Shown: positions 12,271 to 22,338 of the stretch, one piece after another
How the letters are laid out: each line of letters opens with the position of its first letter
Position numbering within the stretch: the stretch's first letter is position 1
DNA from: Firmicutes bacterium UBA3943
GTDB lineage: Bacteria > Bacillota > UBA4882 > UBA10575 > UBA3943
Direction of reading: 5' to 3'
Assembly (NCBI GenBank): GCA_002385625.1
Contig: DGDV01000018.1
Location: forward strand, 16,570-80,569
Length of the DNA: 64,000 bases
Notes under the pieces: generated by a model
What the model saw: the letters and a program-made list of their open reading frames with translations, nothing else
Database searches by the model: none
What the model was told of the DNA's origin: nothing
Program-made: the position numbers and the translations under genes

Positions 12271-12573
12271 TTATTCTTCTTTTTCCTGCACAGCTTCTTT
12301 TAATTGTGTTGCAACTTTTTTCAACCATTCAATTGGGCTAACTCCAAGGGCAGGGAAGTAGATCTCAGCATAGTTCTGGATGAATTCATTCTTTTCTTGT
12401 TCTGTAATGCTACTTTGGATGAATTCATCAATATAAGAAATTATTTCCAACAACCATTGCCTGTCTTCTTCTTCGATAATTTCATTAAGAGCAGATTCGG
12501 GCGATTCAATATCTTGATGGAATGTTCCGCCAAGAAAGTTCTTAAGTTCGTTTTTTAAATTTTCTAAATCCAT
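12271..12573 (-). CDS. Small acidic CdiI-like immunity protein (putative cognate immunity)
   Basis: 100 aa, very acidic, with the N-terminal motif FLGGTFHQD that I associate with CDI-system immunity proteins. GGGAGGA ribosome-binding site; starts 17 nt after the toxin stop; very AT-rich. Confidence 0.7.
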   Translation of the reverse strand: MDLENLKNELKNFLGGTFHQDIESPESALNEIIEEEDRQWLLEIISYIDEFIQSSITEQEKNEFIQNYAEIYFPALGVSPIEWLKKVATQLKEAVQEKEE

Positions 12574-12590: not shown

Positions 12591-13907
12591 TTATTTCGGA
12601 TAGCCTGTTAAAATATAATAACCTCCGGCTTTATCACTTTTAAGAACTATTCTAGCGTTATATAAGTTTTTGACAACTGTTGAGCCTTGAGCTACACCTC
12701 GCCCTAGAATTGTTGGTGGTTGGCTTTGATAATCTAGTACTAGTCTACCTTTAGCTAGCCAATCTTTTATTATTGAAGTATTTTTTTGGTCAGTTAAAAC
12801 ATTATAGGTTACTTCTTCAGCAATTTCGAGGTTAGTAAAAGAAGATGCACCTGGTAACTTGGGATTCTTTTGCACTCTTTCAATCAATTCAGCATCTGAT
12901 TTTCCTACGTGCCGACTGATTAAATGTCCACCTTTAGCTTCATGTGTCTGTAAACCGCCACCTGGAGCAATTTTCTTAGTTTTGCCCGTATCAATGTTAT
13001 TACTTTTTGATACTGTTGTGGGCTTTTCTGCCTTCGAAGTTGTTGCCACCACCTCCGCCCCTGGTGCGGCTTCTGCCTGAGCGGTTGCGGCAGTTGCAGC
13101 GGTGGTGGCTTTGACGAATGCAAGGATGCCGGGGATGCCGGAACCCTTGGTTTCCTTGGGATGAATGTTGTTGTACTCCAGTTTTATTCGCGGGGCGGTT
13201 ATTTTCATCCTCTTTTCTCCGGCAGAGACCCGGTACCACTCGGCTAAGTCGCACTTGACCGTTTTGCTCCCGACTGTCCTGCGGCCTCCGTCAAGCATGG
13301 CGTCCTTTGCCCCGTACCCGTCGGCGATCAGTTGCCCGATGCGGTCCTGGATGACAGGGTAGTTGTTGCCCAATAGTTCCCGGCCGATGCTGGTGGTTAA
13401 GTCTAGTTCCAATTGGCCGTAGACGGTCTCCCGGTCCCAGCGAATCAGGCTAAAGCTGATACTGAAGGGAAGCCTGGGGGTTGTCGTACAGAACCAATCC
13501 TGCTGGAAAGCAGAAGACTGGTCCGGCTCGTTGCCGGTAAAATATGGGCGGACCCATTGGTTGTCTTCAAAGAGAGCATGGAGGTCCAATGTTTTCTGCT
13601 TCAATCCTGCCAGTTCATCCAGGGAGTCCAAATGGAAGAGGTCTAACCGGTAGACTACATGGAGCAGGCTGCCGTCCTTTTGGGGAACCGGGACATAGCA
13701 GTGCTCCCTGTCTCCGAAACAATGTTGCTGGATGACCAACTCAAAGCGGCCCAGACCATCCACGGAGTCGTAGGTTTCGGTGTAACCCAGGACTGCCGCT
13801 TCTTTGACGGAGATCTTCCGCATGGTCTGACCTGCATAGACAATTTCCAACTCCACATCGTCCCGGGTAACCGGCTGGTGCTTCCGGTACTTGGTGGCCC
13901 AGTTCAT
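12591..13907 (-). CDS. Polymorphic-toxin-like protein: unknown N-terminal domain, Ala/Thr-rich linker, C-terminal RNase A-like (CdiA-CT-type) toxin domain
   Basis: The C-terminus reads THEAKGGHLISRHVGKSDAELIER...NARIVLK...GGYYILTGYPK (His-x10-Arg, then a terminal Thr-x-Tyr). The linker is ATTAATAATAQAEAAPGAEVVATTSKAEKPTT. No signal peptide, LXG, Rhs or FHA repeats. The 5' boundary is uncertain (see findings). Confidence 0.7.
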   Translation of the reverse strand: MNWATKYRKHQPVTRDDVELEIVYAGQTMRKISVKEAAVLGYTETYDSVDGLGRFELVIQQHCFGDREHCYVPVPQKDGSLLHVVYRLDLFHLDSLDELAGLKQKTLDLHALFEDNQWVRPYFTGNEPDQSSAFQQDWFCTTTPRLPFSISFSLIRWDRETVYGQLELDLTTSIGRELLGNNYPVIQDRIGQLIADGYGAKDAMLDGGRRTVGSKTVKCDLAEWYRVSAGEKRMKITAPRIKLEYNNIHPKETKGSGIPGILAFVKATTAATAATAQAEAAPGAEVVATTSKAEKPTTVSKSNNIDTGKTKKIAPGGGLQTHEAKGGHLISRHVGKSDAELIERVQKNPKLPGASSFTNLEIAEEVTYNVLTDQKNTSIIKDWLAKGRLVLDYQSQPPTILGRGVAQGSTVVKNLYNARIVLKSDKAGGYYILTGYPK

Positions 13908-14248
13908 GAAAGCTGTGTCACCCGGGGAGATCTTGCCGATGATGATGGCAAGCCGGGCGACGGGGAAGTAAATGACCTTTTTCTCTTGTCGATTGGTTTG
14001 AACTGGTGGTGGGCTGGTTTGTGCATCTGCAGGATCGGATCTTGCAGATGTAGGATGAAATAGTTCATCTGCAGAAATTGATCTTGTAGATGGAGAATGG
14101 GAGCCTGCATTTGCAGAATTAGATCTTGCAATTGATGAATTAGATCCTGCAACTGCAGAATTCGATTCTGCAATTGAAGAATTCTCCGGTGCAGATGTAA
14201 ATTTGTTTTCTGCAGGTGTAGGAAGTTTTTCTGCAGCTTTGGCGCCAA
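13904..14248 (-). CDS. Hypothetical 114-aa Leu/Gln heptad-repeat ORF; may not be a real gene
   Basis: TTG start 5 nt after the HD gene stop, and its stop overlaps the toxin ATG (ATGA). It translates to repeated (I/F)L(Q/H)(L/M)Q(D/N)x heptads. The overlapping frame is equally open, so this call is weak. Confidence 0.3.
   Translation of the reverse strand: MAPKLQKNFLHLQKTNLHLHRRILQLQNRILQLQDLIHQLQDLILQMQAPILHLQDQFLQMNYFILHLQDPILQMHKPAHHQFKPIDKRKRSFTSPSPGLPSSSARSPRVTQLS
14006..14236 (-). repeat. Eleven degenerate 21-bp tandem repeats (CTGCAG-containing units)
   Basis: Minus-strand units such as TTGCAGGATCTAATTCATCAA and TTGCAAGATCTAATTCTGCAA. The period is exactly 21 nt and two of the three frames are open. 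Confidence 0.9.
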
Positions 14249-14253
14249 TCGCC

Positions 14254-14943
14254 CTATGCTTCCCCGTTGATCTCCCGGTGGAGGCGGGCGAAGAAGTCTA
14301 CCATAAACGCTACCCGGTCCCGGGCGATGGCCCGGGCTTTTTCTGTGAAGAGGCGGGCGGGGAGATGTTTTAGTTTTAGCTCAAACTCCAGGTCCGTGGT
14401 GTGTTTGGCAATATCCTTCACCCGCCCGGCCGGGTCGGCGCCGACCAGGTTCTCCCGGATGTATTTTTCCAGGGGCATCTGGTTGTACAGCGGTTCACCG
14501 TACTGGCCGGCCAAAGCGTAGGAGCGGGCCAGGCCGATGGCGCCGAGGACGTCGAGCTTGTCGGCGTCAAAGAGGATCTTCGCCTCCAGACGTTGCGGCG
14601 GGCAATCCGAGCGGAAACGATGGGTGCGGATGCACTCCACCACCGCAGCGGTCTTTTCTGGATTGTACTGCAAACCCGCCAAAATCTCGCCGGCCATTTG
14701 GGCGCCGGCTACTGCGTGGTCGATTTGGCCCGTCGGATCAGTATCCTCCCGGACCCGGGCAATATCATGGAGGAGGGCGGCCAGTTGCAGGACCTCCAGA
14801 TCCACCCCAGGCTCGCCCTCCGCCAAGCGAAGGCAGGTGGCATAGACTCGGTGGACGTGGTCCAGGTTGTGGGCGGCACAGGACAGCTCCTTTTCAACAA
14901 TGGTTTTTACTGCATTCAAGATTGGCTGGGACATTCTTTTCAT
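14254..14943 (-). CDS. HD-domain phosphohydrolase
   Basis: H..HD motif (LLHDIARV) and downstream DADKLD; about 229 aa. Confidence 0.85.
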   Translation of the reverse strand: MKRMSQPILNAVKTIVEKELSCAAHNLDHVHRVYATCLRLAEGEPGVDLEVLQLAALLHDIARVREDTDPTGQIDHAVAGAQMAGEILAGLQYNPEKTAAVVECIRTHRFRSDCPPQRLEAKILFDADKLDVLGAIGLARSYALAGQYGEPLYNQMPLEKYIRENLVGADPAGRVKDIAKHTTDLEFELKLKHLPARLFTEKARAIARDRVAFMVDFFARLHREINGEA

Positions 14944-17724: not shown

Positions 17725-18189
17725 ATGCCCAAATTACGTAAAGCGCTCATCCAAGACGCCGAGAATATTCACAGGTTGATCAACAGTTATGCCAATCAGG
17801 GATTGATGCTGGCTAGGTCCAGGAATATGGTTTACGAATGTATCAGGGAATTCACCATCGCTGAGGATGACAACGGCGAGTTTTTGGGTGTGGGCGGCCT
17901 TCATATTATCTGGGAGGATCTGGCGGAGATCCGGGCCTTGGCCATTGAACCAAAGGCCGTCGGCCGGGGGTTGGGCAAATCCATTGTGGAAGCCCTGGTG
18001 GAAGAGGCCAAGCAACTGGGGATCAAACGGGTTTTCTCCTTGACCTACCAGAAGGAGTTCTTTGAACATTGTGGCTTTCGCCTGATTTCCAAAGAAGAGA
18101 TGCCGACGAAAGTCTGGAAGGAGTGTATTAATTGCCCCAAATTCCCCAACTGCGACGAATTGGCCATGATTCGTGATCTGGAGCAATGA
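17725..18189 (+). CDS. ArgA-type (short N-acetylglutamate-synthase-like) GNAT acetyltransferase
   Basis: IRKA..D...I..LI, LARSR, AEIRALAIEPKAVGRGLGKSIVE (acetyl-CoA-binding Q/RxxGxG/A motif), FSLTYQKEFFEHCGF. ATG at 17725 follows AAAGGGGAG. Confidence 0.8.
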   Translation: MPKLRKALIQDAENIHRLINSYANQGLMLARSRNMVYECIREFTIAEDDNGEFLGVGGLHIIWEDLAEIRALAIEPKAVGRGLGKSIVEALVEEAKQLGIKRVFSLTYQKEFFEHCGFRLISKEEMPTKVWKECINCPKFPNCDELAMIRDLEQ

Positions 18190-19817
18190 ACGGGCAAGGC
18201 CAGCGTAAACAGAAGGGGAAGTACTATACCCCCCAAGCGGTGGTAGACCTTTGTTGGGAAGTCTTGCGTGCCAAGATTGCTCCCGCGACCTTGCGGAGTT
18301 TTCAAGTGGTGGATCCCGCTGCCGGGGACGGGGTTTTCCTGCAGGAAGCCTGTGCCCGGGGGTGGATCACGGGACAGCTGGCCACCGGGGTGGAACTTTA
18401 TCCCGGCGAAGCGTCCCGGGCAGGTGTTTTGTTCCGCGTCGTAAAGGGCAATGGCTTAATCGACCGGCCTGAAGAAGATTTTGTCGCCGGCCGCTTTGAT
18501 CTGGCGGTGGGTAACCCACCCTACGGCGGAGAGGGCCTCCGCGATCTGTGCCGGAGTTGGGAGAAGCCAGCCGCCCGGGCGATGTTGCGGCAACTCTTTT
18601 ACCGCTACGATCTGTGCCGTTTTTATTTGGGGCTTGACCTGCCGGAACAACAAGAGTTCAATAGTTGGCTCCGGGGGGCGGCGGGGCAGCGGGCCCTGGC
18701 TAAACTGGGGAGGTGCCCCATCGAGCTCTTTTTCTTGGAACGCTTCATCTGTCTCTGCCGGGAAGGGGGCTGGTGCGCGGTGGTCCTGCCCGAGGGGCTG
18801 CTGGCCAATGAACGGATGCGGTCCTTGCGGGAATGGGTGGAGGAGCGGGCCGCCCTCCTGGCGGTGGTGGCCTTGGACCGCAAGACCTTCCAACGGGAGG
18901 GGACAGCGGCCCGGACCGCCCTGGTCTTTCTGCGGCGGAAACCCTGCCCGGTGGAGGAGGACAACGAAAAGATCTACTTTGCTGCCCCCGCATATGAGGA
19001 GCAGGCCATGGCGGCCACCGAATACTTGGCCCGGGTGGGCCGGGAACTTGGCGGGGGAGAGAAGCCTGTCACCGGGCGGTGGGTGGAGCGGACCCAGGTG
19101 GCCGGGAACCGTTGGGACCCGGGTTTTTGGCATCCCCGCTTTCGGCAGGTTCTTTGCGTCCTTGACAAAGCGCCCCGGCTTGGCGATTTTATCACCCTGC
19201 TGACCTACGGGCCCATTCTCCCGGGTCGGCGGCCGGAACCGGATGAAGGTGGCATTCCTGTGATTGGCCAATCATCCTTTACTGAAGCCGGGTTGGACTT
19301 AAGTAAAGCCATACGGGTGGCGGCGGGTTCTGCCTTTGATCCCCCCAGGAGCCGTGTGCGCCGGGGCGATCTCTTGTTCCCCCGTTCCGGTGAGGGGTCC
19401 TTGCTTCGCTTTAAAGCCGGGGTCTACGACAGTGATCAGCCGGCCAATGTCAGCTGCTTTGTGGATTTGGTGCGCTTAAGCGGGATCGAACCCTATTATG
19501 TTTGGTTGGTCTTGAAAACCCGGTTCCTGCGGGAACAGATTCTCCGCTTGCAAAACGGGGTGGGCACGCCCAACTTGAATTTCCGGGAAATCAGGGAGCT
19601 GCGGATTCCCTGGCAGGACGCGGCGGAACAAGCGGCCTGGCGCGGGGAGTACTTCCGCCGGGTGGCCCCCCTGCACCTGGCCCGCCTGCAGGCCCTAGAT
19701 CCGCTGGAACGGAGCCGGTTGGGGGAGTTGGCCGATGCCGCCTTCCGCCGCTTGGTGCAGGAGTTGGAGGAGACCCTCAACACCCGCTATTTCCCGCGGG
19801 ACAAAAGCAACGGTTAA
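18186..19817 (+). CDS. Gamma-class N6-adenine DNA methyltransferase with a fused HsdS-like target-recognition domain (orphan)
   Basis: GKYYTP N-terminal motif, motif I VVDPAAGDGVFL, motif IV VGNPPYG. The C-terminal half looks like a type I S-subunit TRD (LGDFITLLTYGP..; LQNGVGTPNLNFREIRELRIPW) followed by helical conserved-region-like sequence. ATGA overlap with the GNAT stop. Confidence 0.8.
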   Translation: MNGQGQRKQKGKYYTPQAVVDLCWEVLRAKIAPATLRSFQVVDPAAGDGVFLQEACARGWITGQLATGVELYPGEASRAGVLFRVVKGNGLIDRPEEDFVAGRFDLAVGNPPYGGEGLRDLCRSWEKPAARAMLRQLFYRYDLCRFYLGLDLPEQQEFNSWLRGAAGQRALAKLGRCPIELFFLERFICLCREGGWCAVVLPEGLLANERMRSLREWVEERAALLAVVALDRKTFQREGTAARTALVFLRRKPCPVEEDNEKIYFAAPAYEEQAMAATEYLARVGRELGGGEKPVTGRWVERTQVAGNRWDPGFWHPRFRQVLCVLDKAPRLGDFITLLTYGPILPGRRPEPDEGGIPVIGQSSFTEAGLDLSKAIRVAAGSAFDPPRSRVRRGDLLFPRSGEGSLLRFKAGVYDSDQPANVSCFVDLVRLSGIEPYYVWLVLKTRFLREQILRLQNGVGTPNLNFREIRELRIPWQDAAEQAAWRGEYFRRVAPLHLARLQALDPLERSRLGELADAAFRRLVQELEETLNTRYFPRDKSNG

Positions 19818-20046
19818 AGGAGATTTACCGGACCCGTGGAATACTAACTCAACCCAAGACGGTAGGCAAGGGGAGCCGATCACCGGGGCGTCTTTGGCTT
19901 CTCCCGGAAACGGGCATGCTATTATATAATTGAACTTGATTTATTTGGTCAGTCGGGGTCGCTTTGTTGCACCGGGGTTCTCCGTTTTGCCCCGCCAGAA
20001 TATCTTTTTGCCTTACACAACGATTATCCAGAAAGATGGGACGTTT

Positions 20047-22338
20047 ATGAATCCACCAAAGCGTACTTTCCGCCAATATAAATTAGATGATTTCCAGTAC
20101 GAAGCCGTTTGCCGGCTGCTGGAGGGCCATTCCGTCCTGGTTTCGGCGCCCACGGGTGTGGGCAAGACGCTGATTGCCGACTACTTAATTGAAGAGGCCA
20201 TCGCCAAGGGTGACCGGATTATCTATACCGCGCCCATCAAGGCCCTGTCCAACCAGAAGTTTAAGGAGTTCAAGGCGCTTTACGGTGAGGAACGGGTGGG
20301 GATCATCACCGGTGATGTGGTGATCCGGCCCGAGGCCGATGTGACCTTGATGACGACGGAAATCTTCCGCAACATCCTGCACCAGGACCCGGGGCGTTTG
20401 GCCGGAATCTCCCATGTCATCTTCGATGAGATCCACTACCTCTCCGATGAGGACCGGGGGACGGTCTGGGAGGAGTCTATCATCTTCATGCCCGAGGGTA
20501 TGCGCCTGCTGGGCCTGTCGGCCACCATCCCCAATGCCCGGGAGCTGGCGGATTGGATCAGTGAGATCAAAGGCCACCGGGTGGTGGTCATCACTAAACT
20601 GGAGCGGGCGGTGCCCCTGGAACACTATGTTTATACCCGCCGGACCGGGCCGACGACCCTTAAGGAATTGGTCCGGGCGGAGGAGGAGCGCCGGAAGAGG
20701 GAAGAAAAAGCAGGGAAGAACGGCCGACGGGATTTTCGCCGCCTCCGCAAGGGGGAGACTACCCACCGGGACCTGGTGCGAACGGTGGTGAAGGCCCATG
20801 GCCTGCCCTGTTTGTACTTTGTCTTTAGCCGACGGATGTGTGAGGAGAAGGCCTATGAGCTGGCCCAGGACCAGGACTTTCTCAAGCCTGAGGAGAAGGA
20901 GACGGCGGAGAAGATCATCGATCAGATGGTCCGGGACTTTGGCCTGGACTCCTGGCGGACCATGGGGCATGTGAAGAATCTGCTGTTGAAAGGAATCGCC
21001 TTCCACCACGCCGGCCTCTTGCCGGCCCATAAGGAGATTGTGGAGGCACTGTTTGGGCAGAACCTGGTCCGGGTAATGTATGCCACCGAAACCTTTGCCG
21101 TTGGCATCAATTATCCCGTTCGTACCGTCTGTTTTGACGCTCCCACCAAATGGGACGGGGTGACCTTCCGACCCATGAGTACGCTGGAATACTTCCAAAT
21201 GGCCGGGCGAGCGGGCCGGCGGGGCATTGACGAACGGGGTTTTGTTTACATCCTGGCGGATCTGGACCGGTACCCCCCGGAGGATTTTCCCAGCACCGAC
21301 CCGGCGGATATTGAGGAGTTGCGGAGCCGTTTCAACCTGTCCTACAACTCGGTCTTAAATCTGAACAAGAACCATTCCCCGGAGGAGATCAACCGCATTC
21401 TCAACCAGAACTTTGCTACCTTCCAGGCCCGTAACGACAAGGTGGTTCTTGAGCGGCAGTTGCACCGCCTCCAAAAGAAGTTTGAGAACATGGCCGGGGA
21501 ATACTGCGGCGACTGGAGTACCGTAGCCTGCCCCCGCCTGCGGGAGGAGACCCAGCGGCGCATCCGCCGGCAGGAACGGAAACTCCGCTATATCAAGGGC
21601 CGCCGGGCCCGGCAGGCGATTATGGATGAGATTAAGCAAATGAAACAAACCCTGCTGGCCGTCCCTGTCCGGGACTGCGACGCGGCCAGGGTTGAAGACT
21701 GCCAGAGGAAAAATCAACAGTTCCAAGAGGTGCTTAAGGCCAAGGAGGAGCTGGAACAACAGATTGCCAATATCAAGGTGGCGGGACGATTCGATGACGA
21801 CCTGTCGCTAAAAGAAGCGATCTTGGAAGAGATTGACTATTTGAAAGACGGAAAACTCCTGCCCAGGGGGGAGTTTGCCTCCCAGATCTATGCCCAGGAG
21901 TTGCTCATTACCGAACTTTATTTTAACGGGTTGTTTCATGAGTGGACGGAAGATCAGATCAACGCCGTGATCGTAGCGGTGGACTATGAGCCGCGCAAGG
22001 GGGAATTTCTCCCGCGCAGCCTCCCCTATGACCCCAAGCCCATCCGCCGCATCATCCGGCAATTGTTATACCACTACGGGGTGGAGGAACGGGATGTGCG
22101 CTTCCATCCCAGTCTCTCCAACCTGGCCTTCAAATGGAGCCAGGGCTGTGAGTTCTTTGAGTTGTTGCAGGATGCGCCCCACCTGCAAGAGGGCGATATT
22201 GTCGCCGCCTTCCGGCGAGGCATCGACCTGCTGCGGCAGATCCGCGGGGCCTGTCTGCAGGATGACCCGATTTTGGCCGGAAAACTTAAAAATTGCATGG
22301 ACAAAATGGACCGTGATCTTGTTCAGGTCAATCTGTAA
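20047..22338 (+). CDS. Ski2/HelY-like DEAD/DEAH-box superfamily 2 helicase
   Basis: Motif I APTGVGKT, motif II DEIH, motif III SAT, motif VI QMAGRAGRRG, charged coiled-coil insertion, DSHCT-like C-terminus. ATG at 20047 chosen (MNPPKR). Confidence 0.85.
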   Translation: MNPPKRTFRQYKLDDFQYEAVCRLLEGHSVLVSAPTGVGKTLIADYLIEEAIAKGDRIIYTAPIKALSNQKFKEFKALYGEERVGIITGDVVIRPEADVTLMTTEIFRNILHQDPGRLAGISHVIFDEIHYLSDEDRGTVWEESIIFMPEGMRLLGLSATIPNARELADWISEIKGHRVVVITKLERAVPLEHYVYTRRTGPTTLKELVRAEEERRKREEKAGKNGRRDFRRLRKGETTHRDLVRTVVKAHGLPCLYFVFSRRMCEEKAYELAQDQDFLKPEEKETAEKIIDQMVRDFGLDSWRTMGHVKNLLLKGIAFHHAGLLPAHKEIVEALFGQNLVRVMYATETFAVGINYPVRTVCFDAPTKWDGVTFRPMSTLEYFQMAGRAGRRGIDERGFVYILADLDRYPPEDFPSTDPADIEELRSRFNLSYNSVLNLNKNHSPEEINRILNQNFATFQARNDKVVLERQLHRLQKKFENMAGEYCGDWSTVACPRLREETQRRIRRQERKLRYIKGRRARQAIMDEIKQMKQTLLAVPVRDCDAARVEDCQRKNQQFQEVLKAKEELEQQIANIKVAGRFDDDLSLKEAILEEIDYLKDGKLLPRGEFASQIYAQELLITELYFNGLFHEWTEDQINAVIVAVDYEPRKGEFLPRSLPYDPKPIRRIIRQLLYHYGVEERDVRFHPSLSNLAFKWSQGCEFFELLQDAPHLQEGDIVAAFRRGIDLLRQIRGACLQDDPILAGKLKNCMDKMDRDLVQVNL

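Follow-up and report, generated by a model that had tools for sequence, protein, structure and literature searches.

Hcp1 fusions are listed among type VI secretion system (T6SS) trafficking modes of polymorphic toxins (PMC3482391), and Hcp-toxin fusions form an established effector class, Hcp-ET (PMC6099711). In the Hcp-ET of Enterobacteriaceae an N-terminal Hcp-fold carrier is followed by a linker, an exchangeable C-terminal nuclease and, directly downstream, a cognate immunity gene, and different toxin clans are found on one carrier (PMC6099711, PMC3482391). In Gram-positive genomes, DUF4280 PAAR-like and VgrG-like genes have been noted since 2016, but a 'phage-like translocation system' was only speculated on, and no tube, sheath or cargo logic was described for these genes (PMC5349215, PMC8651086). 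Such clusters are described as being without T6SS or extracellular contractile injection system (eCIS) genes, and no Hcp-like component was noted (PMC8651086). In this paper we looked at a toxin gene in a 64,000-nucleotide stretch of DNA from Firmicutes bacterium UBA3943 (contig DGDV01000018.1, positions 16,570 to 80,569; hereafter the window), and especially at its N-terminal region, which a first-pass annotation made from the sequence alone had singled out as matching no recognised domain.

The hosts of this toxin family are uncultured, spore-forming Bacillota. Among GTDB representatives, the best match to the RNase Y of the window stands at 77% and is from a Bacillota MAG, and NCBI lists the same proteins under 'Bacillota bacterium'. 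We consider it somewhat probable that the N-terminal region serves as the constant carrier in a small polymorphic-toxin family of the Hcp-toxin fusion type, with VgrG/PAAR-like delivery, and that the window copy is a reservoir cassette of this family. The full module has about 310 residues, and in intact members residues 1 to ~140 are predicted by modelling to form a β-barrel core like that of Hcp and phage-tail-tube proteins. The core is followed by an α/β extension, an Ala/Thr linker, an exchangeable nuclease tip and, downstream, a matching immunity-type gene. This is the arrangement of Hcp-ET, with the Hcp fold here being a prediction. The present family differs from Hcp-ET in having no sequence match to Hcp/TssD, in the length of its carrier, which is about double because of the ~170-residue extension after the barrel, and in its hosts, which are spore-forming Bacillota and not Proteobacteria and for which no T6SS core genes are known; in addition, the window copy lacks the first strands. 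The annotation had proposed a candidate new delivery or anchoring domain. A delivery-type module is indeed what we find, yet not a new kind of one: since Hcp1-toxin fusions are already an established trafficking mode (PMC3482391, PMC6099711), the domain does not form a categorically new class. What appears to be new is a predicted Hcp-fold family that current profiles do not detect, in spore-forming Bacillota and inside DUF4280/VgrG-like modules, together with its natural fusions to polymorphic nucleases that show orphan dynamics like those of Rhs and CdiA.

The toxin gene and the family of its carrier

The toxin open reading frame (ORF), as given in the ORF listing, lies at 12591..13907 on the minus strand and encodes 438 amino acids. 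As encoded, the constant N-terminal module comprises residues 1–266 (13110..13907, minus strand) and has no family match. The annotation had given the region an extent of about 250 residues; the region is real, but its conserved end lies at about residue 266 (..ILAFVK, window position 13110) and its 5' end is incomplete by ~47 residues. Residues 1 to ~90 make up what is left of the predicted Hcp/tail-tube-like core, from helix α1 onward, and residues ~90–266 are the family-specific α/β extension, which ends in ..GSGIPGILAFVK. From the sequence, a low-complexity linker rich in Ala, Thr and Lys spans residues 267–326 (12930..13109, minus strand). The toxin tip follows at residues 327–438 (12594..12929, minus strand) and is of the RNase A-like CdiA-CT type; its residues 327–437 match the full model of PF18431 RNAse_A_bac (positions 1–113 of 113, E 1.5e-24) and also PDB 5e3e_B, a CdiA-CT (E 5e-18). 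The putative cognate immunity gene (12271..12573, minus strand) encodes a 100-amino-acid protein of the CdiI_2 family (PF18593, E 1.6e-18). It begins 18 nt past the toxin stop codon with its own GGAGG ribosome-binding site, and the identical protein is present on 73 contigs. Membership in the RNase A-like CdiA-CT and CdiI_2 families (PDB 5e3e) thus concerns the tip and its immunity gene only; unlike in those systems, the carrier is not a CdiA filamentous haemagglutinin, and the locus has neither CdiB nor a two-partner secretion (TPS) domain.

The base composition divides the gene in the same way. The guanine–cytosine (GC) content of the N-terminal region is 54.9% and that of the whole window 54.1%, in agreement with the host-like composition noted in the annotation, and the tip and the immunity gene have 35.6% and 34.3%. 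The linker, with 53%, drops along its length from host-like to tip-like. No signal peptide or transmembrane segment was found in the toxin ORF: the top 19-residue Kyte-Doolittle mean is 1.25 and falls within the Ala/Thr linker, so that the absence of a hydrophobic signal sequence was also rightly seen. The S8-PTS/BetaH system of Gram-positives (PMC9424270) was considered and rejected, because its requirements, namely a signal peptide, a BetaH domain and an S8 peptidase gene, are all missing here.

That the region matches no recognised domain was borne out by wider searches. Residues 1–255 of the window protein have no Pfam match even at E ≤ 10, and the N-terminal region has none in NCBIfam, PHROGs, PADLOC or PDB sequences (phmmer and profile). 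The N-domains of the window copy, P0005, P0011, P0013, P0015 and the homologue at locus L102 likewise gave no match in Pfam or NCBIfam even at E ≤ 1–10, and neither the window toxin nor the family members examined matched LXG or WXG100. A word-indexed search of 5.8 billion proteins returned 10 relatives, an exhaustive phmmer search of 1.84 billion representatives 6 proteins and a profile search 14 relatives; from the few phmmer relatives it follows that the family is rare at the sequence level. Profile-guided scans of GTDB representative genomes and IMG/VR viral contigs found no family member, and a scan of JGI metagenomes found only copies of lineages already known. Because these viral, GTDB and JGI scans gave no new member, an origin from phage or prophage is not supported. 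The window module is 70–76% identical to the paralogues P0005 and P0015, 25–32% identical to P0011 and P0013 and, against the family profile, ~30% identical to the stand-alone protein of L102.

Five tip/immunity-type pairs are carried by this one N-domain; the tips are alternative and unrelated, and by their sequence families the downstream immunity-type genes change with them, as the annotation had expected of a polymorphic toxin. In the window the RNAse_A_bac tip (PF18431) is paired with CdiI_2. At the same HAD/HD locus as the window, P0002 (locus L004), with an N-domain 99% identical, has a DUF6883 tip and a DUF4926 gene downstream, and the same pair (DUF6883, PF21814) is found in P0003–P0008 at a second locus (~70% identical). 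P0014 has a DNase_NucA_NucB tip (PF14040) followed by DUF2625, and P0015, at a third locus next to gerA genes (~75% identical), has an unnamed tip followed by DUF7674. The more distant P0011 (32% identical), from a metagenome-assembled genome (MAG) of 32% GC, has an Endonuclea_NS_2 tip (PF13930, E 1e-42) and a YezG-like gene. In the high-GC lineage all the tips and immunity genes have 33–41% GC within genes of 55–59% GC. In the P0011 locus an orphan immunity gene of the SUKH/SMI1_KNR4 type (L010 2042–2344) lies ~1 kb upstream of P0011, with a long non-coding gap between the two.

Predicted fold and genomic company of the carrier

Models were made with AlphaFold2 (AF2) for the intact N-domain of P0015 and for the stand-alone, 222-amino-acid P0013, both from one shallow six-sequence alignment. 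The P0015 N-domain reached a predicted local distance difference test score (pLDDT) of 60.6 and a predicted template modelling score (pTM) of 0.62, with low confidence at the start of the linker, and P0013 reached 74.4 and 0.72. Both are mixed β/α structures, as the annotation had judged from the sequence, with a β-rich core followed by helices and a hairpin. In Foldseek searches against the PDB, nearly all top matches of both models are T6SS Hcp proteins (7fcf, 6bdc, which is F. johnsoniae Hcp1, 7yw0, which is B. fragilis Hcp5, 1y12 from P. aeruginosa Hcp1, 4hkh from the Hcp1 of enteroaggregative Escherichia coli, and 8yun) or tube proteins of contractile injection systems (CIS), namely those of the Photorhabdus virulence cassette (PVC), the antifeeding prophage (AFP), Algoriphagus and Streptomyces. 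The Foldseek probabilities are 0.9–1.0, but E-values are only 4e-3 to 0.1 and the TM-score to the target is 0.4–0.65. Against the viral library the matches are tail tube, T6SS component and baseplate hub proteins. The assignment of the modelled N-domain to an Hcp/tube fold is therein consistent and reproducible, although not strong. If it were wrong, the family would still be a constant domain of polymorphic toxins in Bacillota that has so far gone unannotated.

The genomic context of the stand-alone homologues independently supports the Hcp-like reading, as these proteins are encoded together with VgrG-like and PAAR-type spike genes. In locus L011 the order is DUF4280 (E 4e-36), P0013, a gene for 206 amino acids, a VgrG-like gene, a gene for 196 amino acids and Imm11, with two FHA genes and a PP2C gene upstream; the VgrG-like protein matches Phage_GPD above the Pfam cutoff and Phage_base_V and DUF2345 below theirs. 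Locus L102, which was reached through a VgrG-like protein of 55% identity, has the order DUF4280, a homologue of 241 amino acids, a gene for 196 amino acids and a VgrG-like gene. Its 241-amino-acid protein is 34% identical to P0013 (BLAST E 2e-34, hhalign probability 99.3%). Both stand-alone loci are low in GC. The stand-alone N-domain homologues therefore sit between the two members of the DUF4280 and Phage_GPD/VgrG-like pairs that are known from Firmicutes. The VgrG-like family has more than 340 members, and among those listed no source name lies outside Firmicutes; the genera are Aneurinibacillus, Brevibacillus, Paenibacillus and Lysinibacillus, in addition to Clostridia MAGs.

A further tie to these pairs is found in the cargo. 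In an Aneurinibacillus cluster a second VgrG-like gene is followed by a toxin of 512 amino acids, and the tip of this toxin and its immunity protein are shared with P0011, whose tip is 67% and whose YezG-like immunity protein is 66% identical to the Aneurinibacillus pair. One cassette is therefore used both as an Hcp-like fusion and as an effector beside a VgrG-like gene. Taken together, the polymorphism of the tips and the PAAR-like and VgrG-like neighbours indicate a delivery-type module that is neither an enzyme nor a housekeeping protein. A host protein that had captured a toxin cassette, as the annotation had also considered, is not in keeping with our searches, in which every intact homologue belonged to a toxin fusion or to a PAAR-like/VgrG-like module.

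The Aneurinibacillus region itself (loci L020/L021, CP080764.1 1314776–1336200) is a conserved Firmicute cluster, the first part of which is syntenic with L011. It begins with DnaJ, FHA, FHA, PP2C and PP2C/TPR genes, followed by genes for proteins of 425, 229, 881, 260 and 207 amino acids, and goes on with a VgrG-like gene, a pentapeptide-repeat protein, an Imm11-like gene, DUF4280, the second VgrG-like gene, the Endonuclease_NS_2 toxin and YezG. The 881-amino-acid protein has Hsp70/actin-like ATPase motifs, and for most of the cluster genes there is no Pfam family. In its FHA/PP2C pair the cluster is reminiscent of the threonine-phosphorylation switch found in some T6SSs.

The truncated window copy and the exchange of cassettes

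The window copy is not complete at its 5' end. In all the other lineages (P0005, P0015, P0011 and P0013) there are ~47 extra conserved residues ahead of the position of the window Met1, and these lineages, including the distant P0011 and P0013, share the start motif M..Y.l.Is......SpiIs.V...P...l.iI.G.i. Alignments of DNA and protein to the intact paralogues reveal an in-frame remnant of the family N-terminal strands, the 25 codons KKVIYFPVARLAIIIGKISPGDTAF, at 13908..13982 (minus strand), and there is no ATG, GTG or TTG in frame ahead of it. By its sequence, this remnant is now a 5' leader or untranslated. The first ~22 codons of the family start are replaced by a 21-nt tandem repeat. Three assemblies independent of one another (L004/L015, L005 and the window) have the same 5'-truncated structure. 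In the AF2 models the missing part corresponds to the three to four β strands before the first helix (E4–10, E22–28 and E33–40 in P0015; E6–43 in P0013), so the window ORF begins only where helix α1 lies, and its barrel is incomplete. The general argument of the annotation, that the N-terminus dictates the export route, is thereby weakened for the window copy, as the true N-terminus of the family is lost there.

The part that is translated appears to be kept. The toxin ORF is intact on at least 12 contigs, across which the frame of 438 codons is ~99% conserved. In a Nei-Gojobori comparison from Met1 to the end of the module, the ratio of nonsynonymous to synonymous substitution rates (dN/dS) between the window copy and two intact paralogues is 0.33 and 0.27, and between the two intact paralogues it is 0.29. 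Based on these values the translated part is under ordinary purifying selection, and these values together with the intact ORF suggest that the truncated ORF is translated and useful without the first strands. In the remnant, dN is 0.20–0.23 against the paralogues and 0.057 between the two intact ones; over only 25 codons, this small sample of sequence indicates relaxed constraint. The window copy has GGGTGA 10 nt ahead of Met1, and the intact paralogues have AAAGGTGGGAAC before their own start. In locus L005 the gene, P0009, is split into calls of 152 and 273 amino acids, and the idea of a pseudogene was raised and rejected: the contig, from ENA, is 99.9% identical to window 3447–23912 with 10 indels per 20 kb, so that the frameshift is probably a homopolymer assembly error. 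Split genes from this assembly should not be taken as pseudogenes.

The tandem repeat that stands in place of the lost 5' end, with units of 21/42 nt containing CTGCAG, lies at 14066..14183 (Tandem Repeats Finder scores 104–125) within the 345-nt gap between an HD-domain gene and the toxin ORF; this is its core, and as a whole the repeat stretch covers 13904–14253. Its motif is present 4 times, where 0.04 occurrences would be expected. A search of the gap for a sigma-70-like promoter found none, and Rfam and promoter/terminator scans of the repeat gave nothing meaningful. One frame of the repeat reads as ILxLQDx heptads and belongs to a 114-amino-acid ORF starting with TTG (13904–14248), which overlaps the toxin start by ATGA and was called by a gene caller in L004; the exact protein is absent from a collection of 15 billion proteins. 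The paralogues have a related upstream motif, with short ORFs containing ILHLQ(E/D)RILQMQ (L001 9778–9987; L007 9603–9740). The repeat could encode a small coiled-coil protein, serve as an array of operators or be a scar left by recombination. Two smaller observations concern the same segment. In the toxin frame neither a stop nor an ATG, GTG or TTG occurs over more than 115 codons upstream of Met1 (13908–14260), a stretch that reaches into the 3' end of the HD gene, and the same open frame measures 539 codons in L015; this is probably a side effect of the composition of the repeat. The remnant also holds an inverted repeat, CTTGCC-ATCATCATC-GGCAAG, at window 13932–13953 (minus strand), which has a G-U wobble in the paralogues (CTTGCC..GGCAGG) and could be a leader hairpin or simply the result of coding conservation.

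The tips are exchanged by recombination, and several exact recombinants were caught. Locus L004 is an exact chimera: as far as codon ~240 its identity to the window is 100%, and from there its identity to the paralogous locus L001 is 100% across the tip, the immunity gene and ~450 nt beyond. The breakpoint zone, at codons ~238–249 (..KITAPRIKLEYNNI..; 13163..13194, minus strand), was located by sliding identity, with the switch at about column 720, and it marks the change of P0002/L004 from window-type to L001-type; protein comparison of P0001, P0002 and P0005 agrees. In locus L006 (17460–18272) an orphan 3' fragment starting inside the N-domain (LSISFNLIRWD..), with the NucA tip and DUF2625, lies behind insertion sequence (IS) elements, and P0014 is the recombinant that corresponds to it. 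P0141 consists of an intact second-locus head (of the P0004/P0006 type) and a window-lineage body and RNase tip, and in P0140 three parts are joined in a mosaic. The same NCBI MAGs contain both the window-type copy and the P0015 paralogue, as in PLI94_03590 and PLI94_00010; this pairing recurs in two more accession series, and in one sample the coverage of window-type and second-locus contigs is near-equal. By these sequence comparisons, tips and immunity genes move among three or more paralogous loci, of which at least two lie in one genome, and the exchange is by homologous recombination within the constant part.

These displaced cassettes are much like the orphan CT/immunity cassettes of Rhs and CdiA. 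The window copy is 5'-truncated and without its own translation start, it retains part of the constant region, which provides homology for recombination, ahead of a tip and immunity gene of a different kind, and exact recombinants between cassette and full-length gene are observed. Unlike those cassettes, the window 'orphan' is long (~85% of the constant region), lies at a separate chromosomal locus and not directly downstream of the main gene, and keeps an in-frame Met and purifying selection, so that it may be expressed. In L006 (12141–20273) the orphan NucA-tip/DUF2625 cassette is set apart from the broken main gene P0010 with its DUF4926 by several transposase genes of the IS type (rve/HTH_Tnp_1 pairs and Transposase_mut), and from these genes the toxin island can be seen as a hotspot of insertion and rearrangement.

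A proposed tube-like carrier and its alternatives

By analogy with Hcp-ET, the predicted Hcp-like core would make the protein a part of, or a passenger on, a tube/spike assembly. Such an assembly, with a VgrG-like spike and a PAAR-like tip of the DUF4280 type, would carry the nuclease into neighbouring cells, where it would act, with the immunity protein guarding the producer and its kin. The product of the window copy is probably not a tube-competent carrier, because its first 47 codons, with three to four predicted strands, are lost. This copy would mostly serve as a large reservoir cassette of the orphan type, trading body and tip with the full-length paralogues, and in another sample an intact 5' end is indeed joined to the window body and RNase tip (P0141). 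Given the purifying selection and the intact frame, the truncated protein may also be made and used; the window copy would then be either a truncated product or an orphan-like reservoir cassette.

The family adds a candidate third component to the pair of DUF4280 and VgrG-like genes, namely a predicted Hcp-fold protein encoded between them, and natural fusions to five nuclease-type tips with immunity genes tie this candidate to a cargo. The open question of delivery is thereby made testable with defined genes. The family also has orphan-cassette dynamics of the Rhs/CdiA style in a new carrier, with exact recombinants present in metagenomes. A bolder suggestion, which we regard as possible but doubtful, is that the family and its stand-alone relatives are the missing tube, or Hcp equivalent, of an undescribed, phage-tail-derived secretion system of Firmicutes with no recognisable sheath. 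With its VgrG-like, DUF4280 PAAR-like and Hcp-like parts, such a system would deliver polymorphic nucleases to the neighbours of spore-forming Bacillota, and it would correspond in function to type VI secretion, but in hosts other than the classical Gram-negative ones.

Several results weigh against a tube-like carrier. The evidence from the predicted fold is weak, with an E-value of 4e-3 at best, a TM-score of 0.4–0.65 and an alignment of six sequences; no N-domain matched the Hcp/TssD sequence profiles and a profile search of PDB sequences found no Hcp. A tube subunit is also not told apart from a hub-like protein, because the tube fold is found in baseplate-hub domains as well. Another difficulty is the genomic setting of the fused copies. 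The apparatus that the annotation had proposed to look for flanks the stand-alone homologues but not the fusions: spike genes accompany neither the window locus nor any toxin-fused copy, no apparatus genes lie within 10 kb of any toxin-fused member, and in the available DNA these copies are not linked to a DUF4280/VgrG-like cluster. The 64-kb window has no VgrG-like, DUF4280, sheath or baseplate genes; its content is housekeeping (MetG, TatD, MurB, SpoIID, BirA, BioY, RecA, RNase Y, Spo0A and others). Among the best 120 of at least 344 homologues, no VgrG-like protein has the amino-acid composition of the high-GC window organism, which may lack a VgrG-like system, although a screen by composition is no proof of absence. 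In the syntenic Aneurinibacillus cluster hmmsearch with all filters off found no Hcp-like homologue. L011, L102, L020 and the window showed no sheath gene; no sheath has been recognised in these Firmicute clusters, and no mechanism of firing through a thick wall is known. Finally, a truncated copy that the selection data suggest to be translated and useful fits a tube subunit poorly.

Other explanations have therefore to be considered. One of them is a diffusible bacteriocin like the colicins or S-pyocins, in which the N-terminal region would be a receptor-binding or translocation module and the complex of toxin and immunity protein would leave the cell through lysis or some other non-classical route, without any injection machine. 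A protein with no signal peptide and with no secretion genes near any fused copy would fit it, purifying selection on the truncated copy would fit it too, and a nuclease tip with an immunity gene directly downstream is a layout of colicins and pyocins as well. We nevertheless regard it as unlikely: no lysis or release gene adjoins any copy, the predicted fold is Hcp/tube-like, and a receptor-binding domain does not explain toxin-free stand-alone homologues between PAAR-like and VgrG-like genes. This company also bears on export by type VII secretion (ESX/Ess), with the region as a new counterpart of LXG, which we find quite unlikely. The LXG toxins share with the present family the phylum Bacillota, the lack of a signal peptide and a common pool of nucleases and immunity proteins (Endonuclease_NS_2 with YezG, and SUKH), and Endonuclea_NS_2/YezG-like and SUKH-type immunity genes are typical of toxins of the LXG/YeeF type. 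Yet the present family has no LXG or WXG100 match, its N-terminal region is predicted to be β-rich and not a helical bundle, no neighbourhood holds a WXG100, EssC or Lap-type small helical partner gene, and the stand-alone homologues keep VgrG-like and PAAR-like genes as neighbours instead.

It can also be asked whether the toxin is exported at all. If it belonged to an intracellular module for toxin–antitoxin action or abortive infection, its N-terminal region would have a sensory or regulatory role and the RNase would act on the RNA of the producer when triggered. The isolated two-gene unit of toxin and immunity gene among housekeeping genes, its probably cytoplasmic product and the horizontally acquired look of the tip and the immunity gene would allow this. 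However, PADLOC gave no match for the toxin and only a non-significant one for the immunity protein (E 0.015), the tips and immunity genes belong to families known from interbacterial polymorphic toxins, orphan cassettes and the exchange of tips on a constant N-domain are hallmarks of exported ones, and the homologues associate with spike genes; we hold such a module to be very unlikely. As for the window copy itself, the loss of the true start and of three to four strands, the relaxed constraint on the remnant codons and the gap without a sigma-70-like promoter might suggest a decaying relic with no present function as toxin or as recombination donor. There is little probability in this, since the frame is intact and conserved over the at least 12 contigs, dN/dS equals that of intact paralogues, the immunity gene is retained and widely seen, the frameshift in L005 is probably an assembly error, and the window sequence is found in the recombinant full-length gene P0141. 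A carrier of the Hcp-toxin fusion type, with the window copy as its reservoir, is thus the reading that we retain.

Two neighbouring units may be mentioned in addition. In L006 (720–1679, minus strand) a 319-amino-acid protein has a hydrophobic, Gly/Ala-rich N-terminus and a C-terminal TNT toxin domain of the NAD+ glycohydrolase type, and is followed by ORFs of 75 and 118 amino acids; it looks like a separate toxin-immunity unit with another type of delivery. In the window, a protein of 543 amino acids with faint N6_Mtase and Eco57I matches adjoins a DEAD/ResIII/DSHCT helicase of 763–802 amino acids (18186–22338), a pair that may be of the restriction or defence type and not related to the toxin.

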